Shown here: in pieces, positions 5,201 to 33,659 of the stretch
Numbering within the stretch: the stretch's first letter is position 1
Layout: the number at the start of each line of letters is the position of its first letter
Origin: Prorocentrum cordatum
Lineage: Eukaryota
Assembly: GCA_963575745.1 (NCBI GenBank)
Contig: CAUYUJ010000225.1
Location: forward strand, 124,001-188,000
DNA: 64,000 bases
Direction of reading: 5' to 3'
Notes under the pieces: model-generated
What the model saw: the letters and a program-made list of their open reading frames with translations, nothing else
The model's database searches: none
What the model was told of the DNA's origin: nothing
Program-made: the position numbers and the translations under genes

Positions 5201-8200
5201 TAGCGTCACTCCAGGGCGTGGCCCGGGCGGGGCGGGCGCGTCCAGGTGCAGGCGCGTGTGTGAATGCCGTCCACCTATCCAGGTGACGCTGCTTGTCTGC
5301 TTAGTCGGGTCGTCGGCGGGGCATGGCGAGGCCGATGTCGGACCCAAGCGCGCCAACGTAGAGTGCGCATGCGGCGCGCTCCTGGAACGCCAGGGCTGAC
5401 AGGTCGGCGGTAGACGCGGTGCCTTCGATGACCGCGAGGGTGGCCTGGAGTGGGAATTTCCTAGCCACGAAGTCCTTTCAGGCCGCGGGGCAGTTCGCAC
5501 TCTCGGCCCGGGGGTGGCGGCGGGCGACCATGACTAAGCGGGATACCGCGGTGATCAGGAGCTCCAGCGCCGAGTGCAGCTGCTTGAAGTGCTTCCACTG
5601 TAGTCCGAACGGTGCGCCTAGCTGGTCGCGAGCAGTCTGGTCGCGCGGGCGGTGCGGCTCGCACAAGCCAAGGATGGCCTCGATCACGTCTCCAATGCCC
5701 TCGGCGCCCCCGGACGGATACAGGCAGGTGCGCGATTCGCGTTGCATGGGCAGGGACAAGGCGAGGAGGATCCTGGCCTGGATGGCGCCCAGAGTCGCGC
5801 CGGTGCTGTCCAGGAGGCCGTTGAGAACTGTGGCCTGGCGCCCCTTCGGGCCCATGTCGCAGAAGGCTTGAAATACTGGCGGTGTGGGTGGCTCCTTGTG
5901 TCCTTGTGCCTTCGGCACTTGCAGGTGGATGGCTGCCAGCATTTGGGTCTGCGCCTGGGGGCGTCTGCGGGGATGCAGGCTTCCTTAACGTGCCACGCTG
6001 TCGGCATATTCGGTCGGTCCCTTCGGGGCGGGATCAGGCTGGGGCCGACTGCGCGTGCGTTGTCGTCGTCCGCGACTCCGAGTCCTATAGCCCACATGAT
6101 GGTCGCGAAGACCGCCGCGTAGACCAAGTTGCCGGCGTCCAGTCCTACAAGTGCAGAGCAGAAAAAGAGGTACCCGTTCATGCTCCATCCTTCCCGTCCT
6201 GTAGGCCGGGGTCTGTTGGCTGATCCGAAACGCCGTGCCGGTGCGGATGCAGCCCGAGGCACCATAGTAGGCAGGGTCCGAATGCTGGGCAGCCTGGTAG
6301 TCTCGCCGCTGCAGCGTTGACGTCGTCCTCCAGGTCCTTCCAGTTTTGGTCGGCAGGGAGCGGTAGGTCGGCGCGCGCCGAGAATCCAGCCTGTTGAGCC
6401 TGACGGGCCTCGATCACTTCCTTCTCCTTTCGTCTGCGTTCGGCTTCCGCCAACGGCCGGGCCTTCTCCTCTGGGTTGGCGGTCTCGGGGATGTCCTCCT
6501 CTAAAACCTTTGAGTCAGCCGTGGACTGGCGCGGGGATCCGCCCCGGTTGATGTGGAATTCGAAAGCGAGGTCTGCCTTCTGGGCCCAGGTGCTCAGGTG
6601 ATGGAATGCAGCGTCTGTGGCCGTGCGGAACATCCTTGCGCCCGCGGTCATGATAAGGTTGCATTGTTGGCGCGTCAGCCCCACGTCGACGCGGTGCTGG
6701 TCGTCCACGTGGCCCCAATTAAGGATGGAGTTGGCCCGGGTGGTCATTCGGATGACGACGGAGGCCTCTTGCCCCTGGGCGGCGTCGATGGCGGCGACGC
6801 GGATCGCCTCGCTTTCCAGGAGGTCTGGAAACAGGTTTGCGATGCCACTGAAGCGTTCGCTCAGGCCGTTTGCCGCCGTGGCGCGATTGATCTACGTCCC
6901 TCCTGTGGGCCCCTGCCCCGCCCCCGTTGGCGCAGGGGGCCGGGGCCGCCCGTGTTCGTCTCGGATCCTTCCCCTTGCGCCGCCCGCGAGCAGCGTCTGA
7001 TGTCGTGGGCCGTGCAGTGGTTGCCTGCCAGCGCGGGGGTCAGCTGGAGCTTGTACGCCGACAGTGCGAGGATGGTGCTGTTGGTCCTTCTTACCCATGG
7101 TACGAGGGCCTTCACAAGGGCAACCACTGCGCGCGCTTCGTGGGTGTTGGCGCAGCCGCCCTAGATCGTGGACTGAACCTCTTGCGAGGGGATGTGAGCA
7201 AGTATGGAGCGATGCCGATCGTAGACGGCGCCGCCGATTCCCTTCGGGGCCATGCACGCTGCGTTGCTCTGGAATCCGCCTGCGGCGTCGATCAGGGAGT
7301 CGTCGGGCTCGTAGTTGCCGTCCTCGTTCCTTGCTGCTTCGTCTTCTTGGTCGGTCAACGGTCGTGCGAGTGGCCACCCCAGTCCTTCGGCGCATGGTCG
7401 CTGTAGCGTGGGGTCCAGGATGGCGGAAACCAGCCTGCCCCTGTGGAACGTGAGCGAAGGCCATGCGAGCAGGGGCGGATGGATCCGATAGCACCCCTCC
7501 AGAGTGACGCTGCACTCGGGGATGTTCCCTATGGCTGCCACGTACTTGGCGAGAATGGACATTCCTAGCCCCCAGCGCAGTGCCTGCTGGGATTTGACCG
7601 TCGGGCACAGCTGCCGCTCGTCGCCGAAGAGGACCGTTCTGGCACCGCATCTGACAGCGTGGTTCAAGGACATGATGGCCATGGGCTCGGACGTTTGTCC
7701 TGCCTCGTCGAGGAGACATCTGGGGAACTTCTTGTCCCAGAGGTCGGCCCCCGCCTCGCGCGTGGCCAAACTAAATTTTGCCTCTGTCGCGACTCCCTCT
7801 CGGAACTTGCGGAACCAGCTCGCGTGCCCCGTGGTGACCTCGCCCTCCGATATGGCGTGCACATAGGCGTACTTGGCGGCGGGGGTGGTCGTGCCACGCT
7901 GCCCTTGACCTTGTCCTCATGTGCGAGTCGCGCGGCCATGCGCGGGAACGGGTCTTTGTTGGCTGGGTTCAGGTTCTTTCCAATTTGCTCTGCTGCCAGG
8001 TTGTCCATGGATCCGCCGGTGCCGCCAAAACACCCCACGCCCCGCCCTGGGGCGAGGCGCGACATGTAGGCGTCCGCCACGCAGGCCGCGACCTTGGTCT
8101 TCCCGGTTCCGGGAGGCCCGTGGCACAAGGGAAGGAGAGAGTTCTGGGTCGCAAGCACGCAGCGTCGTTGGGCGTCGCTGGCGCGGTGCAGGTTACAGAT

Positions 8201-10650: not shown

Positions 10651-10723
<73 letters not shown>

Positions 10724-10829
10724 TGTGTGGGGGGGGGGGGGGGGGGGGCTCATGGAAAAGCTGGGGGAGGAGGGAGGAGGAGGAGGAGGGGGGGGGGGAG
10801 GAGGAGGAGGAGGAGGATCGAGGCGGATG

Positions 10830-13800
10830 ATGCCCGCGGGGTAAGGCAACTGCGCCGATCCACAAGTACTCCCGCGCGCGCCCCCGCGCGCGCCCTCGCC
10901 TCGGCGCGGTCGCGCGCCCGAGGCCGTCAGGCAGGCCTCGGCCTCACCTCGTGCAGCCCTCAGCAGCCTCGCCACCTTGGCGGCCATGCCTGGCGAGCAG
11001 CTTCTCTCCCGCGCGCGGCGCCTCGGCCTCGGCCGCGCGCCGCCGCCGCCCGCAGCCCCTGCTTCGCTTCGAGCAGCAAGGCCACCTGCAAGCGGCTGGG
11101 GCCCCTCCGGCATCCTGGCCTCCTCGGCCGCACTTCCGCCTCCCACGGCCCCTGCTTCGCATCGAGCAGCAGAGCCACCTGCAGGCGGCTGGTGCACCTC
11201 CTGCGCCCTGGCAACCTTGGCCTCACGCTGCCGCGGCGGCGCCGCGCTGCACGCGCGCCTGCTGCGCCTCTGGGGCGCGCCCCCTGCCTTGCCGCCCTCG
11301 GGCGGCTCTCCTCTCGTGGTCTCCAGCAGCGCGTCCACGTCGACTTCCTCCGCGCCGCTGGTCTGCACCTTGCTCACTCCTCCTGGATCACCTGCTTCGA
11401 CCATCCCCTGCGAGCTGCCTCCTTCATCATGTGCAGGCAGGTATGCAGCCGTAGCCTCCTGCACACCCGCGCCCGCTCCTGCCGCCGCGGCGCTGGCCTC
11501 CGCTGCCTGGTCTGCCCGTCCGCCAGCCACCTCCGCGTCAAGCAGCTCCCCGCAGAAGTCGTCGAGGCGCGCGATGACGAATGGGACCACCCTCGCTGTG
11601 CGGGGCGCGAGCCCCCGCTGCAGCTTGGCCACCACCGCGCTGCCCGACGCGGAAGGCGGCATCTTGCACTCTCCGCTGAAACCGCATACCCTGGCGGCTC
11701 CCGCGATCCCGCAGAGGCGGCAGGCGACCAGCGGCATCCTGCGCTCCAGCTGCTCATCCACGGTGGGGCGGATGACCACCAGGTCGTGGGCGGTGAGCCC
11801 CTGCTGCCTCAGCCTCCTGTTGGCCTTCGCCGCGTCCGCCACGATGGAGCCTGGGCACTCGCCCACTCTCTCCTCCGACCTGCAGACTTCGCACCACCTG
11901 GGCTGCCCAGGCAGCCCGCGCCAGGTGCAAGCCACCTGCGCTGCTGCTGTGCGCCTCTCAGGAAGAGCCCGCTGCTGCTTCACCTTGCCGTGCGTGGTGT
12001 CGCTGCCGTCAACCCAGGTGCCCACAGCCGAACACCACAAGGCGACCCTGTCCACGAGGCCTCGGCTTTGCGCAAGGCGCAGGCGCTCCTGGCCAGGCAG
12101 GCGCCCAGCATCGGCTGCCGCCTTGGCCGCGCGGTCGGCCAATCGATTGCCGTGCCAGTCACGGTGCGACACCTTCCCAGCCGCCACTTGCTGCCTCGCG
12201 CTGTGGCTGGGCATCCACCTCAGTTGCACCTCGCCGCCCAGCCCTCCACGTTCATCCAGCAGCGCCCAGGCCTGCCTCCACAGGTGCGCCCAAGAATGAT
12301 CACTGGCCGTCGTACGCGCGCGCCCCGCCTGGTAGGAGCCGTCGAACACGTACTTCGAGTCCACAACCAGCACAGTGTCACCGTGCCCGTACCTCTGGGC
12401 CATGATCACTGCCGTGAGCTCGCTGCCGTTGATGTCGACGTACGGGCCAACCACCTGTCCAGCGACCGACGCCCTGTACACATCCTCACCCTGCATCAGC
12501 GCGACGGCACTCCAGCCCGCCGCCGTGAACTCACCGTAGTCCGCCTCGAACACCGAGCCGTCCAGGAAGAGCTCCCCAGCTGGCAGAACGCCCTCCTCAT
12601 GTTCGCCCTTCCAGCATACCAGGTCGCTGGCCTGAGGCTTGCGCACCCCCCCCGGCACTGGCCACAGGCACCTCCCCAGCAGCAACTGGATCCCAGGCTG
12701 CTGCCATCTCCTCCTGAGGTCTTCGAGGTCTGGGGGAAGGGCCAGCACCTCTCGCAAGCTAGCACAGTCACAATGCCTGTGCACCAGGGTGCCCTCCAAA
12801 CCGCACCTTAGACACCCCGCGCAGTTGGCCAGCCCTTTCTCCGCCTTCCGTGCCTGCGTCCACTGCCCGTTGACGATCAGGGACCGCAAGTACGCCATCT
12901 CGCGCTGCGTGAGCCGCGCCTTGACTTTGCCAGCCCCTCCTCCCTGCAGCCCCTCGGGGTGGAGCACTCTCCCTGTGGTGGTCAGCCTCACCAGCGGCTC
13001 GAGCTCCCCGCCTGCTGCCAGGTGGCTGCACCCTGGGTGCTTGCTGACTTGCCTCCACTGCCACCTCAGCACCGCTCGCATGACCAGCTTACGCACGACC
13101 CACGGCGCTACGTCGAAAGGCGCGATGGTGTTGCCGTCGTCCATGACCCAGCCGTTGGCTTCTTGCACCTCCCACCCGATTCTCCGCAGCGACATCACCG
13201 TCGCAGCGCATGGCCCCTGCACGTGAGCCCAGGTGGTTGCCCTTTTGTCCTGCAGACCGCGGACAACCATGTGGAAGGGGCACCCAGTTCTCCCACACCG
13301 CCCGCAGCAGCATCATCACGGGCATGCAGGTCGCGTCGATGTTCGGGTCGAGCCCAGGCTGAAGCATCAGCCCCAGCGACCTGCTCTTGCTGGCCGTGGT
13401 GTTGGAGACCGCCACGAACGACATAGTCCTGGCGCGGTCCAGCTCACCCATCGCGCACCCCGTGATGGCCGTGCCGTAGCCGATGCTAGGGTGCAGCCCC
13501 GTCTTCACAACCCTCTTAGCTGCGATCCTCTTGGCCTTCACCACCTTCAGCACCTTGAACTTCCTCAGCCTTTGCCCCGCCTGCTGGTAGCGGCCCTCGC
13601 GCACCGCGCGCCCTAGCCTCTTGCCCCCGCTGAAGTCACCCCCCAGGTTATGCTCCTGCCGCACCGCCAGCACCCCCAGCGGCTTGCGCAGCCTCTTCTC
13701 CAGCTCCTGCCTCGCCTCAGGGAAGTTGGCGAGGGCTCTGGACTTCTTGACCGCGACCGCCAGGTCCACCTCGCTGAGCAAGACCTTGAAGTGCCCTGGC

Positions 13801-16173
13801 CGCTGCCGTGATGTCCCCGACGACGCGCTGCATGCCCCCAACCCTCCTGATGATGATGTCATCTACGACCACCGAGAGGGCCACCGTGGGCACCAACGCC
13901 TGCAGCCTGTCCAGCGGCTCCAGCAGCAACATCTTGAGCATGAGCGTTGCCAAGCAATCTCCTGGCAGCACAGCCTGCTCCGTGTAGATGGCGTCGCTGA
14001 CCGCTTCGTCGCGCGCCAGCCACCTGGCACCTGGCCGACCTGTACAGACTGACCTGGAGCTTGAGCTGCCACAAGGGGAACCCCGTCTTCGTCGCTGCAC
14101 GAATGAGGTGCCCGTGCTGCACCTGCTCGAACGCCTTGAGCAAGTCCAGGAGCACCAGCGCGGCGACCCAGCTGGAGGCGTCGCCAGTCTCACGCCCTTT
14201 GGCCGTGGCCCACTCGCACTTCACCGCCTGCTGCCAGACCGCCCTCTGGCAGCCCTTCCCTCTGGACGCCCAGAAGAAAGGCCGATCGTTCCTGCTCTTC
14301 CACTCGACTGCCGCTGGCCTGCGCCGCCTCGTCTGGATCCTCGCGAGCACGTGGGCGATGGCCACCGGCCTCACTCCTCCTAGCCTCTTGGCCAGGAAGA
14401 CGATATTGTTGTTCAGCTGCGGCCACTCCGCCGCCATCTCTACGGCCATCACGACGTCGATGAGCGTCTCGAGGCCCTCGTCACTCAGCTCCAGGAACTG
14501 CCGCGGCTTGACTGCCTCGAAACCCGCCGCGGTGCCCTTCCTGAACGAGCGCAGCACCGCCTTCATCTCCTCCACTGTCCGCCTGCCAGGCCTCACACCC
14601 AGATCGCCTGGCCATGCCGGCTCCTCATGGGCGCACTGCACCCTCCAAAGCTTGCCCCATTATTGCTCGAGGGCGTCCAGCTCCTGGCAGAGGCTGTGGG
14701 GGCCTGCCGCGGAGCTGCAGTCGCTGCCTTGCCAGCCGACAGCCACTCTCGTGACTGCATGCTGCCCTCCCGCTCCTCCCTTCAGCTGCTTGTCGACCCA
14801 TTCGTCGAACTGCCTGCCGCGCTCGTCGGTGTCACGCCTGGCGAGCTGACTGGCGCGCACCTTGGCCAGCCTGGCCAGGGTCAATAGGGCCACGGGGTCC
14901 CAGCTCGCAAGCCCTGCATGCTGCAGCACCCTCAGCCACCTGCCCGCCTCTGTGCTGTCATGCTTGCCTCCCAGCTCACTCTCGGCCTGCTCTTGCCACA
15001 GCCTGACCCTCTGAGGCGCCAGCTCCGCCAACCTGGGCAGGAAGCCGAGCGCATCAATCCGACCTCGGGGCGCTTGTGCCCTCGCCGCAGCCTCCAACGT
15101 GTTTGCCACCCTGGCCATCCACGCTGCTTCAGGCGTGTGCCTCGGCGCCCGCGGCTCCTGGATCCCGCTGCGTTGCACCCTCTTGGTGGAGAAGCCCTGC
15201 GCCCTGCCCGCGTACCTGTCCCTCTGGTCCTCCAGCTGGTACACGTCCAGCCACTCCTCCTCAGCGCACTCCAGGAAGGTGGCGAAGGCAGCGGTGGGCG
15301 CGTCCTTGGCGCGAGTGCCCTCGCACTCCAACTCGCCTGCACCGCCGCCTCTCCTCCAGCACCTCCTCGCGCCTCCACGGGAGGCGGGCGGCCTGTCTTC
15401 CCCAGAGGCTGGGGGGCCTCGCGCATGCTCCTTCAGCCGCTTCAACCTGAAATGGACTACCCGCGATTACATACGGTGCCTGGCTCGGATGCATGCTGCC
15501 AGTCCCAGCATGGGGAGCAGCTCCTGGGCATCCTTCATGCCCCCGCTGCTCCGCCACCTCCTCCTCCTCCTCGGGACGGCGGCACCGTGCTGGATGCACC
15601 GTGCTGGATGCCAGTCGGCACCGTGCTGGATGCAGCACTTGCTTAGGTTGCGTCCAGAGGCTGCTGCGGCCAGCGTGGGCGGGGGCGGCAGCGCGCTACC
15701 GAGGGGGCCCCACCTTGCCCTCTGGCCCTCCAGTGGTTTTCCGAGGATGCGATTGGCTATGGCAGCGCCTCGGGGCCACCGCCTTCCCTCCGCACGCTGC
15801 TGCTGGCCAGAGTCACCAGTCCAGTCCTCCTCCTGTGGTATTTCGAGGATGCCGTTGGCAGCGCCTCGGGGCCGCCACCTTCCCACTTCGCTTGGCCTCC
15901 AGCTGGCGGCGGCGCCGCCCTCCCGCGGCCTTGTCTGCTGGCTCACCGCGACGACCAGCGCGTGTGCCACTGCTGAGTGCCTCGCGCCTTTCTCAGCCTC
16001 ATGTGGTTTTTGTTCGAGGATGCCCTTGGCAGCGCCTCGGGGCCACCACCTTCCCTCTTCTGGTGGTCGCCCATCAGCCTCGGCGCCACCCATCTGCGGC
16101 CTCGCCTTCTGGCCTTCGGCTCCGACCAGCCCGCGCTCTGCCTCTTCGCGGCCAGCGCCTGCCTCCCCCTCGA

Positions 16174-16216
<43 letters not shown>

Positions 16217-17253
16217 TTTATTCTTTTTCCGAGGATGCCCTCGGCAGCGCCGCGGGGCCACCACCTTCCCTCTGCGCGCTCCTCCATGCGCGCCACCTCT
16301 GCCTCTTGTTTTTTTTTTTTTTTTTCGAGGATGCCCTCGGCAGCGCCTCGGGGCCACCGCCTTCCCTTCGCACTCCTGCGGTCCTCAGCCTCGTCGCCCT
16401 CCTCTAGCGCCCTCGGCTCACCAGCAGCTGCTGCCAGGCCTACTGTTAGCTGCTCCCTCACGCGCTTCCTCGCCCGCACCCAGCTTCTGCGGTGATCCCT
16501 TGCACAGCATCCGTGCGGCCTTGCCTCAGGAAGCGCCCGAGGCCTCTGCACCACCCCCATGGCGCCCTCCATCTTCTGCTTGGCGACTTCGGCGATGACT
16601 GGCGCGTGCGGTTACACAGGCGAACCCGCCACCACCTGAGCTCCCTGCGCGAGCAGCCCGCGCGACACAAGGAAGTAGTCGATGATCCGCCCTGACGCCA
16701 TGCAGGTGGGCCCCGCGGGTCTGACCACGGACGCGTCGAAGAGCGCCAGCACGCCGCCTGCCTGCAGCTCGTCATCACTGAGATTCCAATCCCCGCCGAT
16801 CACGTACTCTCTGCGGCAATGCCTGAGCCTCCTCGCCAACAATTTGAGGCTCGACATGTTGCTGAGGTTGAGGCCCTCCCCCGCCTCCAGGTACAGGTTG
16901 GCAATCAGAAAGCCGCCGCCACAGATGCCCGAGACCCAGTGCACGTGTACTCTGCCGTCCACCAACACCGCCGCCTGGTGGTCCTGGACCTCCGCCATCC
17001 CGTGGCAACGTCACACCATGGTGATGGGCCCCCCAGTGCTGAGCCCACCTGACTCAGACCTCAACGCTGGCGAACTCCTTGCCCGCCATCCTTGACCACG
17101 GAGTTGAGCCTCAGCATCTCCGCTCCTCCCCTCTAGCAGCCTGGTCTCCTGCACCAGGATGGCGTCGCAGCTCTGCACCTCCTTCACCATCAAGCACTTG
17201 CCCAGGCTGCTGAACGCGTTGACATTGACCGTGCAGATCCTCCAGACGCCCAT
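10830..17253 (-). pseudogene. LINE ORF2: apurinic endonuclease, reverse transcriptase, RNase H (frameshifts and stops)
   Basis: APE: RICTVNVN, ILVQETR, IGGDWN, IDYFLVS. RT: FLAKRLGGVRPVAI, LDLLKAFEQVQH, VLPGDCLA, VVVDD. RNase H: LFLDGS, NGSELTAV, VVDSKYV, WMPSH, GNRLADRAAK. Confidence 0.92.
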
Positions 17254-17260
17254 CCCATCG

Positions 17261-18394
17261 CTAGGACTCTGAGTCCTTCTCCTCCTCCCCCGTGCGCATC
17301 TTCTTGGCATCATTTATGAGCGCCTCAGCCGCCTTCCTCTTGCCAGGGTCCACGAACTGCTCCTCCAGCTCCTTCCAAGCCTGCTGCACCTCAGGGGATG
17401 GCTGCAGCGGCCGAGGCTCCGCCTCAGCAGCCGACCTTGCCACAGCCCCAGCCCTCGCGGGTGCAGCAGCGCCAGCTCCCGCAGGAGGCGGCTGCACAGG
17501 ATCTGGCACCGCAGCACCCTCTCCTGCCGCCTTGCTCTTCCACTCGAACAGCTTCTCGACCGCCTCAGGCAGCTTGACGAACCCCCCGCAGAACACTGGG
17601 TTGGCCGCCACCCCGCTGGACTTGGCCCAGCCCGCGAGCGTCGCCATGACCTCCTGCAGGGAGGCAGGGGTGGCGGACGCTGCCGTCGCCACCTCGGCTG
17701 CCACGGCGGTCCCCGCCAACCTGGCACTCTGAGCTGCCAGCGCCTCGCGCGCTCTGGCGGCTGCCTCGGCCAGCTCCTGCCGCAGCTGCTGCAGCTTCTC
17801 CGTGAGGTCCGCCGTCTCGTTGATGGCCGCCCTCGCCTTCGCCTTGGCCAACTCCAGCATGTGCCCAGTCCGCTTGACCTTCTGCGCCTTCTCGTCAGCC
17901 AGCAGCTGGGCGGCTTTGACGGCCTTATCCTTGGACAGGTCGTCACCCAGCCCTTCGCGCACCAGCCGCCTGGCCTGCTGGAGCTCGCTCCTGATCTTCG
18001 CACTGAACAGCTTGGTCGCGATGGCGAACTGCCCATCTGACATGCTGACGAGCTCACGACGCTCATCGTCGTTGAGCACCACTCCCGCAGCACGCTGACC
18101 TCCTTCACCGCACTCATCGCCTCGCCACCGCGGCGCACGGGTCGCAGGCGCGCCAGCCCCAGCACGTCCACCACGCCCGCCACCGCCAGCGCCAGCAGGA
18201 GCACCGCCACGACCTTGAGCCCCTTGCGGCAGGAAGCTGCCCAGGACCCTCTGCGACGGCTTGCCTCCACCCTGGCACGCGTGGCGACAGCGCACTCGCT
18301 CGGCGAAGTTGTAGTAGCTGCGCTCCTGGCACACCCATCCCAGGGGCCCGCCTGAGCGACCTCCCCCGCGCCCTTGCCCCGCGCCGCGCCCCAT
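17261..18394 (-). CDS. LINE ORF1 (nucleic-acid binding; RanBP2-like zinc finger + coiled coil)
   Basis: Open ~377-aa ORF directly upstream of ORF2. It has an RGG-rich N-terminus, WVCQERSYYNFAERVRCRHAC (degenerate W-x-C...N-x6-C zinc finger) and an A/E/K/Q-rich helical stretch. Confidence 0.75.
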   Translation of the reverse strand: MGRGAGQGRGGGRSGGPLGWVCQERSYYNFAERVRCRHACQGGGKPSQRVLGSFLPQGAQGRGGAPAGAGGGGRGGRAGAGAPATRAPRWRGDECGEGGQRAAGVVLNDDERRELVSMSDGQFAIATKLFSAKIRSELQQARRLVREGLGDDLSKDKAVKAAQLLADEKAQKVKRTGHMLELAKAKARAAINETADLTEKLQQLRQELAEAAARAREALAAQSARLAGTAVAAEVATAASATPASLQEVMATLAGWAKSSGVAANPVFCGGFVKLPEAVEKLFEWKSKAAGEGAAVPDPVQPPPAGAGAAAPARAGAVARSAAEAEPRPLQPSPEVQQAWKELEEQFVDPGKRKAAEALINDAKKMRTGEEEKDSES

Positions 18395-18498
18395 CGCGCG
18401 CAAGACACTGGAGGAGACGCGCCCGACTGCCAGAGCGCAAAGACTCTTGCCTGCCGCGGACTAGCGGCATCCGTTCGACCCCCTCGGGAACCTGGCAC

Positions 18499-18520
18499 CT
18501 TGAGCCAAAATGGCTGCGGA
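18499..18520 (-). other. Dinoflagellate spliced-leader (DinoSL) copy at LINE 5' end
   Basis: The minus strand reads TCCGCAGCCATTTTGGCTCAAG versus the DinoSL consensus DCCGTAGCCATTTTGGCTCAAG (21/22). Confidence 0.95.
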
Positions 18521-18749
18521 GGAGGATCGAGGCGGAGGAGGACGACGACGACGACGAGCAAGCGATAAGTGAAGGCTTTGTGATATTTGTGGTTTGGGGG
18601 TGCTGGAGGGGGGGGGGGGGGGGCGACCATATATGTGTATATGTATGTATGTATGTATGTCTGTATGTCTGTCTGCCTGTATGTATGTACGTACGTGTGT
18701 GTACATATATGTGTGTATATTCGTGTGTATGTCTAGATGTATATATATA

Positions 18750-21700
18750 CAAGATGTTAAGGCTCGCTGCGCTTCGCCTTCTAATCTTGACCCTTGCACC
18801 CACGATGTTTCTGGGCGCGGGCGAGAACCTTTTTGTTCAATGAGGTGCGTGGGAAATGCGCGAGCGGAGGCGAGGCGAAGCGAGTGCGCGGTAACGCCCG
18901 GGCTCATCGGAGAGATGATGTGTCGACGGGGCTGTGCCGTCGCCGGCGCTTGCAACCCAGGTAGCGTAGTCGACGTCGCGGTGTGGTCGGTGGTTCACCT
19001 GCAAAGCGTAAGTAGTGAAAAGCTCCCATGTAGCAGATGTCCGAACACTGTCGTTGACGATAGAGTCCCGCGTGCCTCCTTTCACAACAGGAGGAATCTG
19101 GCGGAAATCCCCATAGCAGACGAAAGCCTTGTTCTTCCAGATGGTAGTGTGGTGCTGTTGAATGTGGCCCAATAGTTTGAGGGCGCTCTCCCACGCAGGT
19201 CGTTTAGCATTTGGCCATTCATCCCATTGGAGCACAGACGCCGCGGCGAGGGCACCGGCACCTTTGGAGCTCATCGGCAGAGAGCAAGTGAGGACGTCCT
19301 CGTCAGGCACCGGAGTCTTGCAGAAAGAGTGCGCCGTGGCGCCGAATGGGAATTGCAGGGCCGCGACTCCTTTTGGCCATGTTGACGACTCCCTGTCCAC
19401 TCCCCAAAGCAGCGTGAGTGATGGAACTGGTGACGGTGGATTTGCCTCTGCCAGCGGGGCCGTGGGCGAAAAAATACTTTTCGGCCCCGGCGCGGATGGG
19501 CGCGATTATCGATTTGACGGCGTCGGTCTGACTCGGATCCTTTGAAAGGTATTGTAGATGGTCTTCGCGCGGGATTGCGCTTCTTGCGGGGGAAATGGCG
19601 CCGCAGAGGTGTCTGGTGCTGGGGATGGTTGAGACCGTGCAGGTTTGTCTTCTTCCAGCGTGAACGATTTGCCAGTGCACCGGCACGAGAGGCGCAAAGC
19701 GTCGCACGCAGCTTTGCGGGCGTAATCGAGAGTGAGCCCGCGATCGCGGAAATCACCGAGGAGATGCTTCTCGAACTTGTTGCACAGCGTCACGGCGCGC
19801 GCGTCCTGCTCGAGCAACGCGACGAAGGCGAACCGTAGTTGAGCGGCAGTGTATCGAAGCTCGTCTAACTCCTGGAGCACCCGCGCGGGTTCGTCAGCTG
19901 TCGCAAAATACCCGGTCGCCACAAGGGCTTGCTCATAAGTGGGGTACCTCCGGCCGGCGTGGGTTTTGCAGTCGGCGAAGCTTGGTTTTGGGTAGTTCAA
20001 CAGTATGTGTCTGAGGTAAAACACCAGAACACCTCTCTCTGTTCGGGGCACTTCATTTCCTGCCTGCATATAGGATGTTCGCCCCGTTGCTTCTCGTAGA
20101 CGAAGTGGGTCCGACCTGGGGGGGCAGCGTCGAGCACGGGCGCCAGGGCCCCGTCCGGCGGGGGGGTCGCCGAAGGCGCCGCAGCCCGTGGGAAGAGGTC
20201 GGGAAAGTGGTGCTGCAAGGCTTGCGGGCAAGATTTGGCCACCATGAAGCGCTCGAAATATTCGCAGTACTTCGTGGAGAGGTGCGGCTCGAACTTGGGC
20301 CGGTGGAATTAGCGTTGCAAAAACGAAATAGACGATTGTACGGCGTCCTCTTCTTGTCCGGCGGCATAGGTGATCCAATCTTCGTCATCGCAATGCACTG
20401 GTGGACAAACCACATGAGGGATGCGTTCATACATAGTGTAGCCAAACATGCGCCACGCGCATTCCGTGGCACAAATATAACGGCCACGCTGCTATTATTT
20501 GATCTCGTCTTTGTTGCCAGTGTCCTCCTGGAGCTCATACTTGACAAAGTCTGGTCCTTTGAACGGGGACTTGTAAAGGTATTGGAACAGGTTGACGGAC
20601 CCTGCGAATTTGACATTGGCGTGTCCGTCTCACAGCAGGAGGATGGTGGGGTTGTATTTCACGATCAGCCGGTTGCAGCAGGCAGATCGTTTGCCGTAAG
20701 ATGCGGTCCCAGACGCGCAATTGGGGCAGTCACCGCCACAATGTCTGCGGCGGTGATGTGGATACCCTCGCTCGTCAAAGTACGCGTCGTCTTGGAATGG
20801 CCACGGGCGCCATTTGATGCACTCCTGAGATGGGTCGTCGGTGCGGCACGAATGGTTGCACGAGTGTATCATGTGTTGAAGGACGAGTGCGCGGACAGGA
20901 CCGTCTGGTGGAAGTTCGCATGAGACGAAGGTGTCCACGGCTTCGGGCGTAGTTGGCGGCGTTGTCAGGGCTATGGCAACGTGAGAACGGGGCAGCCCTC
21001 TGCGCTGATATTCAATACCCTGATGACGCACCTGCGGTCTCCACAGAACTCACGCTTGAGGTGCGCCATCGTCTTCTCCAATCGAGCGCGGAATACGCGG
21101 ACCACGATGTCTGGGCGGTCTGCTGCTGTCTGGCCCGGATGCAGAGTGGCAGTGGTCTCGGGCCAGTATGGGTTGCACGTCAACGTGATGAAGAAGGTTG
21201 GCGGGCCTTTTCGCCGAGCAAGCCCCAGGGAGTCCATTCGGAGCTTGCGTAGGTGGCGGGGGGACCCGGGCACGCTCGAAAACAAATATGCACTCGTGCC
21301 AGGGAGGGGCGCGTCATTGGCGAGGGCCTCGCACATGTCTTCTCGTTTGGAAGTTCGTTGAGCCTGTGCTCTGCGAAGAAGTCCGAGCCTCTCATCCTCC
21401 ATCATGCAGTGCATGTTCACGAGCCACTCGTTCACGAGCCGCCCACGTAAATTCATGCGCGGGCTTCGTAGGAGGTGTTAACGGTGCCACCACATCTGTG
21501 TGAGGCGCTGCCCCGCGTTCGCGAGCATGTCGGCGCTCCGTCCGCGGCCGCCGCGGGGAAACCAGAGCGGGTAACTCAAGGGCTCGTAGAGCGCGCTCAG
21601 CGGGTTCATGTATTGCGGCGTGGGACACGAGTTCCTTCGGAATACGACAGACCGGGGCGACGCGTCCACGCGGGGTGTTTCATGGACAATCGCAGCGAGC

Positions 21701-22831
21701 TCGTCGATGCCATCGTCCCACTGGAGCTCGACCGCCACGGCGGCGCCGCGTACTGACGGGGCCGACAAGCGTCAAAGCTCTTTCGCATAGCCATTGTGCG
21801 GAAGGATACGTGTCTCCAGTCGCCGAAGCAACTTTAGGTCCACATTGTGCGCAGTGGCGTTCGTGGCGCGCTCCCGAGGGTCGACGACAATGTAGCGTGG
21901 AGGCGCAGTGTCAGCACAGCTCCAAATCCGCCGGTACATCGTGCCAGGGACTCGGATATTGGAAGGCCGCAGCTCGCTACTGAATCGCAACTCCCGTTCC
22001 GAAGTAGTGCTTTGAATCTCGTGCACGGCGAAAGAGAACAGACTATTGCAGCGCCTGCTGATGGCTGAGAACCCCGTCGATCCGAGGTGCATTGGAAATC
22101 GCGTCGTGTATTGGGCGTCCCTATTCGTCCTTGTACAGCCACGTAGTGCCGAACGTTTTCATGAGAGCGCCTGCAGGGGGCTTGTAGTACTTTGTGAAAT
22201 CCACGTAATGCTTCCCGGCGCCGCAGCAGAAACCATCGCCTTCGCAGCGGGACAGCTTTGTGGAGCAATGGGTGCATGTGTGCGTCATGGCACCCAAATC
22301 GATTCGGGAAAAGGCGCCCTCCGGGCGTCCTAGTGGACAGCAGTGTCGGCATATCTTCTGGTTGCGGGCGTGCCACCTGGGAGCAAAATCGCCCAGCGGC
22401 AATGTTTCTCCGCATCGAGCACAGACACAAAATGAAGCCGGCTGCGCAACACATGCCTTGCAAATTCTCTCGGTTCTGTGTCGTTGTCGAACTGCGAAGT
22501 CCTCGGGGGAGAGCTCCTCGTGACAGCGAGTACAGGGCAAGGCCACCGCAGGTCTGTTTTGGAGGGCGGCGCATGCTCTGCAAATCGTTGTGGCTTTGTG
22601 TAGCTGAGTGGGTGTGAAAGAGTCGCGCGGAAGGTCGGTCGTGCACACCAAGCACGTGAAATATGCCCGTGTGGCGCATGATTTGCAAGTCTTCGTGGCT
22701 TTGTGTAGCTGGGTAGGTGTGAGCGAGTCGCGCAGCAGGTCGGCCTCGCAGACAGAGCACGTAAAGCATGTTGCCAGCTTGGGGCCCATGGCGCAAAGCA
22801 AATGATCACGGTGTACATGTGCCCATCCCAA
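18750..22831 (-). mobile_element. Helitron remnant (RepHel pseudogene: Zn-finger region, HUH Rep, partial Pif1 helicase)
   Basis: N-terminal CxxC...CC (THTCTHC...FCCGAGK). Rep motifs: GPPTFFITLTCNPYWPE, EYQRRGLPRSH, YLYKSPFKGPD. Pif1 motifs: HGPAGRGKST, QWDEWP, GDFRQIPPVV, LQVNHR. Multiple frameshifts. The 5' boundary is uncertain. Confidence 0.9.
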
Positions 22832-23099
22832 GAATGGGAGATCTACGCACTTCGAGCCAACGCGTCGGAGTGTACTGAAAATGAAGCAACATGGTGGAAG
22901 GGGAAGCAGGAGAAGCGGAGGATGTTGAGGACGAGGTGGGAGGGCTTGAAGGAAAGGTGAGGATCATGTTTTAGTTCCCAGGGTCGCTGAAGGAAGAGTA
23001 TAAGAAGGCGGTGACGGGGGAGAGAGGAGAGGAGGAGGAGGACCAGGAGAGTGCGGCGGGGGAGAAAGGTGGACAGAGGGAGGAGAAGGAGGACGAGGA

Positions 23100-25689: not shown

Positions 25690-28600
25690 TCAATCCGCCC
25701 GTAGCCAAATGAACAGGTCGCCCTCAGGAGACCGCTCCACGCGCAGCTCGGCGTCGCGGAACGTCGTGAGCATGGCGACGCCCCCGGGCGGGGCGGCCTG
25801 GGCCACGGGCAGGGGCAGTGCCGGCAGGCCCGGCGTGCTCGACTGGAGCGCGCCGCTGAGAAAAGCAATGCTCACGACGACGTCCGAGACCGGCGTCGCG
25901 GACGCCTCGAGGAGCACCCGGGCGCCGCCGGGGACGAACGGCGGCGCGAGCGCCAGGGCGGCCAGCAGCCCGGCGCCCCGCGGGGCGAGCTCCACGGCGT
26001 AGGAGGCCTTCGCCGGCCTGCCGGGCAGGGCGACCTGAAGGAGGAGGAGGAGGAGGAGGAGGAGGAGGAAGAGGAGAGGAGGAGGAGGAGGGAGGAGGAG
26101 GAGAGGAGGAGGGGAGGAGGAGAGGGGAGGAGGTGGAGGAGGCGGAGGAGGGAGCGACCTGGGAGTGCCACTCCTGGGTCACCTCGCCGCACTCCAGCAG
26201 CGGCAGCGAGCCGAGCCGGGGCAGCACCGCAGCGTCCGACCACAGCAGGCGCCACCTCCCCACCAAGGAGCTCGCGATCTGGGGTTCCGCGCCGCCGGAC
26301 CTCCCGGCATCGACGGGGCCCAGCGCCTCAAGCTCGCACACGCACGCCATGACCTCGGCCTGGCACTCGTCCGACACGGCCCCGAGGCCGCGGTTGAGCC
26401 CCGCCGCGCACCGCAGCAGCCGCTCCCGCAGCGCGAAGCGGGCGCCCGACAGCATCCCTGGGTACCAAGGCGTGCCTGGCTCGCCACGGACGAACCGGCT
26501 CACCTGGGACACGAGGGCGCCGATGGAGTCCTCAGGGGGGGGTATTTTTTTGTTCCCCCTCGTGTTTCCCCCCCCCCCCCCCCCCTCGGGGGGGAGGTCT
26601 TTATTTGTTTTTCCCTCGGAGATTTTTTCCCCTCTCAGAGTCTATGTTTTTTTCCCTCGGGTATGTTTTTGTTTCCCTCGGGTCTTTTTTACCCCCCCCC
26701 TCTCGGGTGGGGGGCCGGCAGGGCTGGGGGAGGACAAGGGCCTCGAGGCTGTTTTCCCCTCTCCGGGGGGGGTCGCGAAGGGCGAACCGGGGAGGCCTAG
26801 GGGTGTCATGGCGTCGGGGTGTTAGGGGCTTCGGGTCTCAGGGTCTCGGGGTATGAGGGCCTTTGGGTCTTAGGGCTGAGGGTGTAGGGTCATAGGGTAT
26901 TAGGGTCTTAAGGTCTTAGGGCCCTTGGGTGTTAGGCTCTGAGGATTTGTGGGTATGAAAGTATCAGAGTCTGACTGCGTTGTGGTCTTAGGGTGTTAAG
27001 GCATCGAGGTATTCGGGTATGCACGTATTCGGGTATCAACCCCTTAGGGTATGAGGGCGTTCGGATCTTCGGGTCTTCAGATGTCTGGCCTCAAGGTCTT
27101 ATGTTGCTTGGGCTTTAAAGCCATCGGGCGATAGGGTATCATGATATTGCTGTGTGTTGTGCGTTCGCGTGCTAGGGCCTTAGAGTATTGGTGTATCAGG
27201 GTATTACGGTATTCGGTATCATCAGGGTCTCAGGGTGTTCGGGAATTATCAGTGCATCAGGGCACTAGGGTGTTAGGGTATGGTGGTATGCGGGTATGAA
27301 GGTACTCGCGTGTTAAGGTATTCGACAATTGATATGTTAGGGCCTCAGGGTATTAGGGCATTCGTGTATTAGGGTGTTCGCGTGGTAGTGTATTCAAGTA
27401 TTACGGTGTTCGGGTGTTCAGGTGTTCGGGCATGAAGGTATTAAGGTTTCAGGAGTTAGGGTACTAGGGTATCAGGGTAGGGGATGATGGTGTTAAACCA
27501 TCAGGGTATTAGGGTCTTAGGGTTTTGAGGTATTAGGGTAGTAGGGCTCTAAAGTGTCAGGGTCTTGGGGTCGAAAGGTCTTAGGGTCTTAGGGTCTTAC
27601 GGCATGGAGGTGTTAGGGTATGAAAATATTAGGGTCTGTGGGTCTTAATGTGCTGGTGTATGGTGGCATCCGGGTGATATGGTATGATGGTATGAAGGTA
27701 TTCATGTGTTAGGGTATTAAGGTATTCGGGCATTAAGGCATTAGGGTGTTAGGTTTTGGGGTATGAGGGCCTTCGGGTGTTTGGGTGTTAGGGCTTGAGC
27801 GCATTAGGGTCTTAGGGTGTTAAGGTCTTACGGCTCTAGGGTGCTAGGGTCTTCGGGTCTTAGGGTCGTTGGGTGCTAGGGTCCTATGGTCGCTCGTCTT
27901 ATGGAATTGAGGTATTAAGGTCGTCGGGTATTATGGGACTAAGGGCTTCAAGGTATTACTGCGTTGTGGTACTAGGGTGTTAAGTGCATTCTGGTATTGT
28001 GGTATTGGTGGTATCATGGTATTCGGGTACTATGGTGTTAGGGCATCGCGGAATTAGGGCCTTAGGGTGTTAGGGTCTTGGGGCTCTAGGGTGTTAGGGT
28101 CTGAGGGTTTTTGGGTGTGAGGGCCAGCCTTATGATATTTAGATACTAATTTGTTCGGGTATTAGCGCATTGTGGTATTAAGGTGTTAGGGTCTTATAAT
28201 ATTAGGGCATTCGGGTATTTGGGTGTTAGGGTCTTAGGGTGTTAAGGTGGTAAGGGTCCTCAGGTTTTAAGGTGTTAGAGTCTTAGGGCCTTCGTAATTT
28301 AGAGTGTTAGGGTGTCCGGGTGGTAGGGTCTTAGGGTGTCAGGGTCTTAGGGCCTTAGGGTCTTAGGTGGCACTTTAGGGTCTTAGGGTCTTCGGGACTT
28401 GAGGTGTTCCGGTGTTAAGGCCATAGGGTATCAGGGTATTCGGGTCTTAGGGTGTTAATGTCTGAGGGTAATCTGGTACTAGGGTCTTGAGGTCTTAGTC
28501 TGAGGGTCTTAATGTGTTATGGCCTTGGACACTCGGTTCTTAGGGTCTTAAGGTTTCAAGGTTTTACGGCGTTGTGGTACTAGGGTGTTAAGGCATTGTG

Positions 28601-30511: not shown

Positions 30512-31078
30512 ACACCATTCTCAATTATTATGTTGTTCACCCCTCGCGAGAACGGCATCCGCTGCCCCCTCGAACGAAAGCCGCCGAGCATGCTGGACTG
30601 GCGCGGTGACGGGACTTTCCGCAGGCAGCTCGAGACTTACACATCCGCTACACGGATGGAAGGCGGATCTTTCCAAGACGGGGCTTTGGACTGAGTGGCA
30701 GGCCGATGGGGCGTTACCTTTGAAGGGAGCGCTTCCCGCAATGCAAATGGAACGTTTGCATGAGGATTCTACGGAAGGGTCTTGGGACAGGAGGGTATTG
30801 CAGAATCCTTGATGCATCCTGGGTTTACTCTGATCCTTCTCCTCCTCCTTCCCCGCCTCCTCTCTCATTTCTTTCGCCCTCTATTTCCCTCCATCCTCAT
30901 CCTAGCTCACACTCCCTAGCTCCAAGCCCGTGGTCCCTACGTATGGCTCCTGGCTCCTGCCGATGCTCAGGCTACAGCGTCTGTTCCTGTGACCTGTCAA
31001 TGTTGCTGTTACTGCTACTCGCACTGATGCAGTTCCTCCTCCTCCTCCATCATCATCATCAGCATCATCATCATCGCA

Positions 31079-31130
<52 letters not shown>

Positions 31131-31140
31131 CCATCACCAC

Positions 31141-31187
<47 letters not shown>

Positions 31188-31191
31188 CCAC

Positions 31192-31228
<37 letters not shown>

Positions 31229-31299
31229 GTCGCCATCATCATCGCCACGACCACCATCATTATCATCATCACCACCACCATCATCATCATCACCCCCAC

Positions 31300-31337
<38 letters not shown>

Positions 31338-31560
31338 CCATCATCACCATCATCACCCTCACCATCACCATCATCGTCATCATCATAATCAGCATCATGG
31401 TTTCCATTATCATTATCACCGTCCTCATAATCATCATCATGGTCATCATCATCCTCGTCGTCCTTATCAGCATCAGCATCAGCATCAGCATCAGCATCAG
31501 CATCATAATCAGCATCACCATCACCATCACCATCACCATCACCATCACCATCACCATCAC

Positions 31561-31598
<38 letters not shown>

Positions 31599-31650
31599 CC
31601 ATCATCATCATCAGCATCAGCATCAGCATCAGCATCAGCATCAGCATCAG

Positions 31651-31687
<37 letters not shown>

Positions 31688-33580
31688 TTCATCATCACCA
31701 TCAACACCATCATGTTCATGCGCTGGCAGCACAATATGTGCTGGAAGCGAGACGGCACGTTCTGGCGCTGCCTGGCCTCCCCCCCTGGGGGGGCCCACCT
31801 GGGACCCCCCCGGCGATAGCCCCAGGCAATTCCTCCCCCTCCCATGGCCCCTCTCTGGGGCCTTCCTTGCACCCCCCCGCCCTGTCCCCTGCCCCCCCCC
31901 CCTCCCGAGGAACAAAAAAAAAAAGCTAGAGGGGGAAAAAAAAAAAACGCCTCCGAGGGGGAACAAAAACAGCTTCGACGCCCCTGGGCCCCTCCCCTGG
32001 CCCCCCCCCCGAGAGGGAAACAAAAACGACTCGAGGGACCCCCAAAAAGCCTCCGAGGAGGAACAAAAACAACAGACTCGATGCCCCCAGGCCGCCCCCC
32101 ACCGCCGAGGGAACAAAAAAAAAGACAAGCCCGAGTCCTCACTGCCGCCGAGGCCGTTGGGGAGGTCCAGGGGCGTGGTGTGCCCGCCCTCCAGCCGCGC
32201 CCGTTCCACCGTCGCGCCCTCCGGCGCCGCTGGCGGCATCGGGGCCTCCAGCTCCGGCTCCGCCGGTTCGGTCTCGGCGTCCAGCTCGAAGTCCACAGAC
32301 TCGCCCCACCAGCCCAGCTCGCTCAGCTCGCCCCACTCCTCGTCGCCCCAGTTGTCCTCGCCGTACGCCTCCTCGAACGCTGCCTCCATGGCCTGGTCGA
32401 GCGCCTCGTCCAGGGCCGAGCGGCCCGCACCCTCCTGCGTCGGGAGCGGGAGCTCCTCGCACTCGAAGGTGGACAGGAACCAGGGCGTCTCGTCCAGCGC
32501 GTCGTCCGCGAACTCGACGAGCAGTGTGCGCGGGGCCAGCGCGTCGACCCTGCGCAGCCGCCGGGCCAGCTCCCGGCGCGAGGGCCGGAACACGCGCCGG
32601 CCCACCGCGAAGTCGCCGAGCGACAGCGCCGCCTGCGCCAGGAGCCTCGCCGCGTCCCGCGCTGCCGCCGCGGTGCCCGGGCTGGCCCCGCGCGCCCCCA
32701 GCAGGCCGCGGGCGGCGGCCTCGAGCCCGCCCGCCAGGCGGCGCTCGCCGAGGAGCCTGCGCGCCACCAGGCGGGCCAGCTCCGCCGCTGGCGCCACGGG
32801 CCACGGCGGCGGCGCTGGGATGGCGGCTGGGATGACGTCGGAGATGGGCCGCTGGTTGAGGCCCAGGAGCACGTTGCCCGTGCACGTCCGGCGCTCCGCG
32901 AGGAGGAGCACGAGCGCCCCGCCCAGCGAGTGGCCGACGCAGTACAGCGGCAGTCCTGTCAGCCGGACGCCCCTGCGGCCCGCCAGCTCCAGCACTGCCG
33001 CGTCCAGCGCGTCCGCCGCTTGAGCGGCGCTCTCCTCCAAGTCGGACGTGACCTTGTAGGGAGTCGCCACGACGGCCGCCGAGGACTCCGCCGCCAGCCC
33101 CTCCAGGAAGCTGCGGTAGAACAGCGCTGGCGCCGCCCCTGCGCCGGCTGCCCCCACGAAGTGGACCAGGGCGGACGGCGGCCCGCGGGGCAGCAGCACG
33201 CTGCAGCCCCCCGCCGTCTGCCACGCGGGCTCGTCCTTGGCTGCGGGGACCTCCTCGGCCCACTCGTCCTCCTCGCCGCCCTCCTCCCGGAGGCCCCCGC
33301 TCGGCTGGGGCCCGCTCTGCCCGGGCCCCAGGGCGGCGCGGGCAGCCCCGGAGGGCCCGCGGCGGCCGCCGCTGCGGCCCGCGCGCCGCGCAGGCGCAGC
33401 GCCGCGGCGCCCGCAGCGCGGCGCGCGGGCGATGCCGGCCCCGAAGGCGAGCGCGCTTGTGGCGGCCACCGCGCCCGCCGCGGCCGCCGCGGCCGAGGCG
33501 CCGCGCCGCTCGGCGGCGGGGCATCCCGCAAGCGGGCCGCCTCCGTGGGCACGCGGCGCCGGCGCGTGCGGCAGCATCAT
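25690..33580 (-). CDS. Spliced gene, ~719 aa: DUF1350-type alpha/beta hydrolase fused to a PAP/fibrillin domain, probably plastid-targeted. Exons 33580-32138, 26530-26159, 26034-25690
   Basis: Exon 1 carries DUF1350-like motifs (LVHFVGAAGAGAAPALFYRSFLEGL, VATPY, LPLYCVGHSLG, LLVEFADDALDET, LEGGHTTP). Exons 2-3 carry fibrillin motifs (LLRCAAGLNRGL, LVGRWRLLWS, LTTFRDAELRVERSPEGDLFIW). Exon lengths are 1443, 372 and 345 bp, and the exons join in phase 0 without stops. Confidence 0.82.
26035..26158 (-). other. Intron 2 (124 bp, GT-AG), CCT-rich, bounded by an 8-bp direct repeat
   Basis: Donor CCCAG|GTCGC and acceptor TTCAG|GTCGC. Removal joins WHSQ to VALPGRPAKASYAVELAP in frame. Confidence 0.88.
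26795..30240 (+). repeat. Degenerate telomere-like satellite (TTAGGGTC/TTAGGGTG/TTAGGGTA octamers) with higher-order periodicity
   Basis: Hundreds of TTAGGGTN-like units. The marker gttgtggtactagggtgttaag or close variants recur at ~26980, ~27963, ~28571 and ~29403. Confidence 0.9.
28996..29180. mobile_element. 185-bp MITE, Tc1/mariner-type (TA TSD)
   Basis: Perfect 29-bp TIR CAACCCCGTGCGAAAAGCAACTGGGGTTT, with TA at 28994-28995 and 29181-29182. Confidence 0.93.
30290..30515. repeat. (CAT)n microsatellite
   Basis: Direct reading of the sequence. Confidence 0.95.
31048..31712. repeat. (CAT)n/(CATCAG)n/(CATCAC)n compound microsatellite
   Basis: Direct reading of the sequence. Confidence 0.95.
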
Positions 33581-33649
33581 CGCCGGCGCGTGCGGCCGTG
33601 GCGCTGCCCGGGGGGCTGCCTGCGGGGAGCCCTCGCTGCGGGCGCTGCG

Positions 33650-33659
33650 CTTGAGCCAA
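33650..33659 (-). other. Truncated spliced-leader relic upstream of the DUF1350-fibrillin gene
   Basis: TTGGCTCAAG equals the last 10 nt of DinoSL. It lies ~70 nt upstream of the ATG, exactly where low-complexity DNA changes to GC-rich genic sequence. Confidence 0.7.

Follow-up and report, generated by a model that had tools for sequence, protein, structure and literature searches.

DNA-encoded copies of the dinoflagellate spliced leader (SL; DinoSL) are an accepted mark of retroposed mRNAs (PMC7245778, PMC5585692, PMC6050394, PMC12014239; here and below, citations refer to the passages of these papers that were consulted). In the described retrocopies (Slamovits & Keeling 2008, as given in PMC6050394; Song et al. 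2017, PMC5585692), a host gene passed through an mRNA intermediate and returned to the genome with the leader at its 5′ end; the published relics are of a 15-nt type, CCATTTTGGCTCAAG, produced from the AG inside the leader (PMC5585692, PMC6616646). Long interspersed nuclear elements (LINEs) of Symbiodiniaceae are described as ancient remnants (PMC8045281, PMC10235124). Here we describe a LINE in a 64-kb stretch of Prorocentrum cordatum DNA (contig CAUYUJ010000225.1, 60% G+C; hereafter the window, in whose positions all coordinates are given), which runs on the minus strand from 18520 to 10828 (about 7.7 kb) and whose first bases are a DinoSL. As in the described retrocopies, the 5′ end is a DNA-encoded DinoSL that points to an mRNA intermediate, and the AGs inside the leader are likewise potential acceptors for a next round (PMC5585692). 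In contrast to them, the cargo is the retrotransposon itself and not a host gene, and the SL is complete (22 nt), abuts the target-site duplication (TSD) and is unaccompanied by a truncated relic. The probable origin of this element is an SL-trans-spliced LINE mRNA that was copied into DNA as far as its 5′ end and inserted through target-primed reverse transcription.

The most similar architectures are presumably those of endonuclease-type LINEs with an RNase H, such as I, Tad1, Ingi and L1-like elements. With these the element shares two open reading frames (ORFs), ORF1 and ORF2, the latter with an EEP endonuclease, a reverse transcriptase (RT), a Cys/His motif and an RNase H, as well as a TSD of variable length and the lack of long terminal repeats (LTRs), whereas its 3′ end lacks a tail of poly(A) or simple repeats and its 5′ end is a host SL rather than a promoter-bearing untranslated region (UTR). 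LINEs adjoining SL sequence are also known in SLACS, CZAR, CRE and NeSL-1, which insert into the SL exon of SL-RNA genes by means of a restriction-like endonuclease. In our case, in contrast, the whole SL lies within the TSD, the endonuclease is of the EEP type and the site of insertion is a (GGA)n/(CGA)n tract; an insertion specific for SL genes would have SL-gene sequence on both sides, whereas the flanks here are (GGA)n/(CGA)n and the SL is single. The trypanosomatid elements L1Tc, ingi and RIME, which bear the internal promoter Pr77, are also LINEs in genomes with SL trans-splicing and long precursors (PMC1874656). The transcripts of L1Tc and ingi are unspliced, start at +1 and carry no SL, which was argued to preserve their full length (PMC1874656); the present DNA copy begins with an SL and its template was thus evidently SL-bearing, the opposite arrangement. 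The RNA of the Ty3-type element Cer1 of Caenorhabditis elegans is also able to receive a spliced leader (SL1), but only its short spliced 2.4-kb mRNA is trans-spliced and the packaged 8-kb genomic RNA is not, so that the SL is not copied into DNA (PMC3315495).

The core of DinoSL, CCGCAGCCATTTTGGCTCAAG, was located at 18499-18519 on the minus strand, and the T at 18520 extends it to the full 22 nt. The leader matches at 21 of 22 nt, the sole substitution being T>C at SL position 5. When up to three mismatches were allowed in the 21-nt core, this was the single match across 64 kb, with none arising in 100 dinucleotide shuffles; the same search revealed neither an SL-RNA gene nor a second SL piece in the 64-kb window. 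A search of the window for repeat families showed that the element is bracketed by two identical copies of a 19-mer, GGAGGAGGATCGAGGCGGA (Table 1). Since the bases adjoining the two copies differ (a at 10808, c at 18517), the TSD cannot exceed 19 nt, and its length falls to 16 nt when the shared bases 18518-18520 are assigned to the SL; the complete leader lies inside the TSD with its first base at the inner edge and an overlap of 3 nt. The first 9 nt of the TSD are (GGA)n-like and the remaining 10 nt are not low-complexity. The preliminary description of this locus had noted a 22-nt SL with one mismatch directly abutting a TSD of 16 bp plus a 3-bp overlap with the SL, and both the leader and the duplication were recovered as described, on the minus strand and as a perfect 19-mer. 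Extremely simple sequence surrounds the insertion site. At 10652-10800 it comprises about 70 T, (GT)n, some 20 G and (GGA)n, and on the opposite side, at 18606-18750, (CGA)n, a run of G and (TATG)n/(TG)n.

Behind the SL we found the order given in the preliminary description, a 104-nt UTR followed by ORF1 and then ORF2, all on the minus strand (Table 1). The UTR bases directly joined to the leader are GTGCCAGG. No older, decayed SL relic was detected in the UTR (score 12 versus a shuffle mean of 11.9, with 63% of shuffles scoring as well). A special fold of the SL/UTR region was considered and rejected, its stability being no better than that of shuffles (z from +0.25 to +1.3; +1.31 for SL plus the next 38 nt, +0.86 for SL plus the whole UTR), and a search of 18300-18620 against Rfam returned only a sub-threshold microRNA match. 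ORF1 is rich in Gly and Arg at its N-terminus and in Ala, Glu and Lys in its middle; it gave no Pfam family, no homologue in the word-based search and no match in the protein atlas. By eye, its residues 11-27 (18313-18363, minus strand; GGRSGGPLGWVCQERSYYNFAERVRCRHAC) resemble a RanBP2-type zinc finger with the second Cys replaced by Arg, a likeness without Pfam support. At the other end, the last bases of the element, ...CCGCGGGCATCA, are directly followed by the TSD with neither poly(A) nor a short tandem-repeat tail, tails of these kinds being common to many LINE clades though not to all. Long terminal direct repeats were absent from the 20 largest of the 40 repeat families in the window.

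ORF2 starts with the ATG at 17253, 7 nt past the ORF1 stop. A relative of 1479 amino acids (aa) found by the word-based search (P0005) aligned over its aa 1-1463, with endonuclease, RT and RNase H in the same order, in five pieces that lie in frames -2, -1, -2, -3 and -1 by tblastn. The RT piece includes a catalytic VVVDDII motif near 13858-13866. On raw frames the only above-threshold Pfam match of the element was RNase_H (E = 7.6e-7, 29.8 bits versus a cut-off of 25.8 bits); RVT_1 was weak in the window (E = 0.017) and clear in two relatives (3.1e-10 in P0020, 2.5e-7 in P0038), and Exo_endo_phos missed the cut-off in the window (E = 0.0057) and passed it in a third (4.2e-8 in P0156). When a profile of nine relatives was compared with solved structures, it matched L1 ORF2p (1.9e-5), R2 (2.2e-5), a retroviral RNase H (4e-5) and ExoIII (1.4e-4), the nearest structures to the ORF2 family being human L1 ORF2p and the R2 protein. 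The domain identities follow from these Pfam matches in the window and in relatives together with the match of the family profile to solved structures. With an RT, an N-terminal EEP endonuclease and a TSD without LTRs all present, the element is by its protein similarities an endonuclease-type (APE/EEP) non-LTR retrotransposon, that is, a LINE, with an RNase H.

The preliminary description had called the LINE full-length, which holds for its extent and fails for its coding capacity. The element is coding-defective: in-frame stops at 17013-17011, 16614-16612 and 14662-14660 lie within homologous segments of ORF2, in addition to four frame changes. From the three stops and several frame changes, the divergence can be roughly estimated at a few percent, which is compatible with a still-perfect pair of 19-nt TSD copies and one SL substitution. 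Some of the frame changes could also stem from errors in the assembly, as the long homopolymers in the vicinity suggest that long reads were used. ORF2 also contains a block of about 1.09 kb (the span without P0005 counterpart is about 1,088 nt, 16390-15301), whose G+C-rich motif of about 45 nt reads GGGAAGG(T/C)GGTGGCCCCGAGGCGCTGCC(G/A)AGGGCATCCTCG; each motif copy contains a hairpin, CCGAGG-GCAT-CCTCGG, and is followed by an A-rich run. The block may have been inserted or expanded secondarily, or else it is a linker specific to the family. A resemblance between the 3′ tail of the LINE and this internal block was also considered and rejected, as 13% of shuffles reached its score.

Table 1. 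Features of the element, of its target site and of the neighbouring DNA, in window coordinates
Feature	Position	Strand	Remarks
AAA_12 ORF	6181-6891	-	Pfam above cut-off
AAA_11 ORF	7164-7916	-	Pfam above cut-off
TSD, 3′-side copy	10809-10827	.	identical to 18518-18536
3′ region with 93-nt tandem duplication (11036-11221)	10828-11611	-	ends ...GGGCATCA, no poly(A)
ORF2 C-terminal part: Cys/His motif, RNase H (~12113-12571), Cys-rich tail	11612-13234	-	P0005 and P0004 tblastn, 35-50% identity
P0005 aa 931-1463 (Cys/His motif, RNase H, Cys-rich tail)	13234-11612	-	tblastn
ORF2 linker and reverse transcriptase, three frames, one stop	13278-15301	-	tblastn P0005 aa 260-914, 40-46% identity
P0005 aa 748-914	13778-13278	-	tblastn
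P0005 aa 666-745 (with VVVDDII)	14025-13786	-	tblastn
P0005 aa 260-666	15301-14030	-	tblastn
~1.09-kb block without counterpart in P0005	15302-16389	-	five ~45-nt motif copies and a (TA)n tract
ORF2 N-terminus, apurinic-type (EEP) endonuclease domain	16390-17253	-	two in-frame stops
P0005 aa 1-273 (endonuclease)	17229-16390	-	tblastn, 36% identity
ORF1, 377 aa, intact	17261-18394	-	ATG 18394, TAG 17263-17261, no internal stop
5′ UTR, 104 nt, start GTGCCAGGTTCCC	18395-18498	-	sequence
DNA-encoded DinoSL, 22 nt, TCCGCAGCCATTTTGGCTCAAG	18499-18520	-	first bases of element; only match in window
TSD, 5′-side copy	18518-18536	.	last 3 nt (18518-18520) = first 3 nt of SL
PIF1 ORF	18840-19505	-	Pfam E 9.4e-24
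Helitron_like_N domain	20974-21477	-	E 6.4e-29
Stc1 ORF	22124-22963	-	Pfam above cut-off
PAP_fibrillin ORF	25727-26641	-	Pfam above cut-off
DUF1350 ORF	30905-34108	-	Pfam above cut-off

The protein family of the element is large. When 560 residues encoded in the window were used as query in an exhaustive search, the representative clusters numbered 773 at E<=1e-3, many of them of 1300-2300 aa, and 183 at E<=1e-10; the ten clusters that were looked up came from ENA, Logan, JGI/IMG and NCBI assemblies. In the 64-kb window itself, blastn revealed no second copy of the element; a distant LINE relic at 53326-54915 (minus strand) retains only the 3′ part with RT and RNase H at 24-30% identity to family proteins, with no SL nearby. 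Another DNA data set (run X1) contains 0.14 of the sampled window words. X1 contigs were placed on 16420-18600 at >=80% identity, and the statements on junctions below hold among the matches listed. A total of 542 contigs were placed on this interval (16, 193, 216 and 117 at >=99, 95-99, 90-95 and <90% identity, respectively), among them overlapping variants of ORF1 with 10-25 differences over 17586-18325 and some contigs that span the ORF1/ORF2 junction, so that ORF1 and the UTR belong to a multi-copy repeat in the organism of X1. Two X1 contigs share the SL and 13 UTR bases (from 18486 up) and then diverge; their unmatched 23 nt were identical to the next UTR bases of the window at 16 of 23 positions (score 8), whereas shuffles scored 2.8 ± 1.25 and only 0.34% of 5000 reached a score of 8. 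These two contigs give a weak hint of a diverged copy with the same SL/UTR junction, in which case the junction would not be a one-off. No contigs of a second run (X2) were placed on 16420-18600, and a third (X3) gave matches only at the SL and flank bins. No RNA run was among the listed runs that share words with the window, which says nothing on expression.

How, then, did the leader come to stand at the 5′ end of a LINE? From the anatomy of the locus and the established meaning of a DNA-encoded DinoSL we infer trans-splicing of the template, target-primed reverse transcription and joining by microhomology. The template would have been a LINE messenger trans-spliced with the 22-nt DinoSL, as on dinoflagellate nuclear mRNAs. 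The endonuclease of the element would have made its nick in a (GGA)n/(CGA)n tract (...GCGGA|GGAGG... on the plus strand), and reverse transcription would have proceeded from the RNA 3′ end, ...GGGCAUCA, which is not poly(A), until it reached the initial base of the SL. The end of the cDNA may then have been joined to the target through the 3-nt microhomology TCC, giving a TSD of 16-19 nt, and later decay would account for the three stops, the several frame changes, the one SL substitution and the 1.09-kb repeat block. The central idea of the preliminary description, that the LINE RNA itself was SL trans-spliced and copied to its 5′ end, is thus the best fit to an anatomy in which an SL within a TSD is followed by UTR, ORF1 and ORF2.

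Several points weigh against this explanation. It rests on one full-length copy, the only one readable base by base, and as this copy is coding-defective, it is silent on the competence of SL-bearing copies. A GT directly follows the SL; the introns of SL genes begin with GU or GC after the SL exon (PMC6616646), and the first part of what we call the UTR could therefore be an SL-RNA intron. The two X1 contigs with the shared junction could equally be SL-RNA genes with a related intron, and no X1 contig bridging the UTR and the SL was found among the matches listed.

A model that goes further than a single SL-spliced template, and that builds on a suggestion of the preliminary description, holds that members of the family do without an internal promoter and depend on read-through transcription within unidirectional gene arrays, and that the terminal AG of the genomic SL is re-spliced in each cycle, leaving exactly one SL on every competent copy. 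The single complete SL with no relic behind it speaks for such self-renewal, as does the same SL/UTR junction in the apparent diverged copy of X1, although identical SL/UTR junctions in all daughters would arise equally well, with no self-renewal, from a master copy that has an upstream acceptor of its own. Read-through would also suit the neighbourhood. Outside the element we counted 89 ORFs of >=200 aa, six of which have a Pfam match above the curated cut-off, and 6/6 lie on the minus strand, the strand of the element, which is consistent with a unidirectional gene array; the PIF1 ORF and the Helitron_like_N domain look like the Rep/helicase of a Helitron that shares the strand of the LINE and lies close upstream of it, the LINE having inserted about 300 nt beyond the PIF1-matching ORF. 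A shared orientation is, however, expected by chance in one of two cases. Pyrimidines make up 78% of the 50 nt that precede the SL-internal AG (95th percentile of the window, 70%), and the 55 nt at 18570-18516 are free of AG, which also fits read-through; in addition, the TTT(T/G) of SL relics has been proposed as a portable core promoter of retrogenes (Song et al. 2017, PMC5585692). Yet the first AG after this flank is the SL-internal one (18515-14) and the SL-terminal AG (18500-18499) is the second; with a pyrimidine-rich, AG-free flank, it is therefore the internal and not the terminal AG that is the first available acceptor. The retrogene literature also implicates the internal AG as acceptor (PMC5585692), and the published 15-nt relics point to it. 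Use of the internal AG therefore predicts an SL plus a 15-nt relic in daughter copies, and the UTR here shows none. On balance we regard the self-renewing cycle as unlikely.

Small nuclear RNA can also become fused to a LINE-made cDNA by template switching, as in U6/L1-type chimeric retrocopies, in which the RNA stands at the 5′ end of the cDNA within one TSD. The layout of our element is the same, and it would be produced if the RT, on reaching the 5′ end of the LINE RNA, switched to an unspliced SL RNA (exon plus intron); the SL and the next 30-40 nt or so would then be SL-RNA sequence, with the true 5′ end of the LINE further in. Such a chimera requires an SL-RNA intron after the SL, and both the GT at that position (compare PMC6616646) and the recurrence in X1 of the SL with the same 13 nt, as a multi-copy SL gene would give, are in its favour. 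However, a GT is expected by chance in 1 of 16 cases, the SL with 38 nt and the SL with the UTR fold no better than shuffles, and the window contains no SL-RNA gene. The readable SL-gene sequences of Fugacium have no similar intron, though this is a different genus. Template-switch chimeras are, moreover, rare relative to SL-capped mRNAs. A chimeric origin of the 5′ end, the main rival to an SL-trans-spliced LINE mRNA as the source, appears improbable to us.

That the SL is foreign to the insert, the LINE having landed beside the SL relic of a host retrogene or both match and repeat being coincidental, is very hard to credit, for although a low-complexity (GGA)n flank favours short direct repeats, of which a third copy with 77% identity to the TSD repeat lies at 10763-10784, 10 nt of the 19-nt repeat are not low-complexity, the repeat brackets the SL on its inside, neither an SL gene nor retrogene sequence lies outside the TSD, and the SL is unique in 64 kb.

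Family loci were sought in further collections. None were found in metagenome contigs searched with ORF1 and with an RT alignment, in viral contigs (IMG/VR) searched with P0003, P0005 and alignment A3, or in genome contigs searched with alignment A3. A 20-nt pattern of the SL/UTR junction, GGCTCAAGGTGCCAGGTTCC, had 0 matches in viral contigs and one in genome contigs (L001); the latter lies in an actinobacterial metagenome-assembled genome (MAG) of 69% G+C with no SL upstream, and was rejected as chance. In the viral contigs, 119 stretches (L002-L120) carry an exact match to the 21-nt DinoSL. The G+C content is roughly 20% at about 100 of these loci, giant-virus MAG bins are the source of most, and some contigs have many SL copies. 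In one of them (L025) three SLs stand 50 nt apart at the border of AT-rich and GC-richer DNA, and another (L068, 5319 nt) has the SL at its end, resembling an SL-capped transcript. The DinoSL-bearing viral stretches encode no relative of the LINE proteins, and the ORFs of L048 and L050 have no Pfam match.

In a full-text search of the literature we found no description of a LINE with a DinoSL 5′ terminus, nor of TSDs at SL-tagged retrocopies. Genes that encode an RT and carry an SL relic have probably turned up in bulk already without being described, and some may be listed in the supplements of PMC12014239 and PMC5585692. The element combines two known things, an endonuclease-type LINE and a DinoSL-tagged retrocopy, in an arrangement that is expected in hindsight and apparently undescribed.

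Dinoflagellate genomes contain thousands of genes marked by DNA-encoded SLs, and the enzyme that made them has been called unknown (PMC5585692) or taken, by preference, to be that of Ty1/copia elements (PMC6050394). The Gene Ontology term 'RNA-dependent DNA replication' is enriched in DinoSL-tagged genes, and the authors of that study suggested that retrotransposons drive retroposition (PMC5585692). With its complete SL, clean TSD and 5′ microhomology, the element described here has the look of a LINE-type target-primed insertion from an SL-capped RNA. This signature can be searched for at retrogenes, in terms of TSD length, nick site and absence of poly(A), and it raises the question of whether LINEs make the retrogenes of dinoflagellates. 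As a tentative joint reading, at least one dinoflagellate LINE lineage might make its 5′ end by SL trans-splicing. The SL would then be copied into every full-length insertion and bring along a core-promoter-like TTT(T/G) motif and AG acceptors, allowing expression without an internal promoter in transcribed same-strand arrays, and the same enzyme, having copied an SL-capped RNA to its first base and left a TSD of 16-19 nt, might be the engine of the thousands of DinoSL-tagged retrogenes. This would be the opposite of the situation in trypanosomatids, whose LINEs avoid trans-splicing and so retain a promoter at the 5′ end. Should the SL be the regular 5′ end of this family, the RNA processing of the host would furnish the expression module of the LINE.

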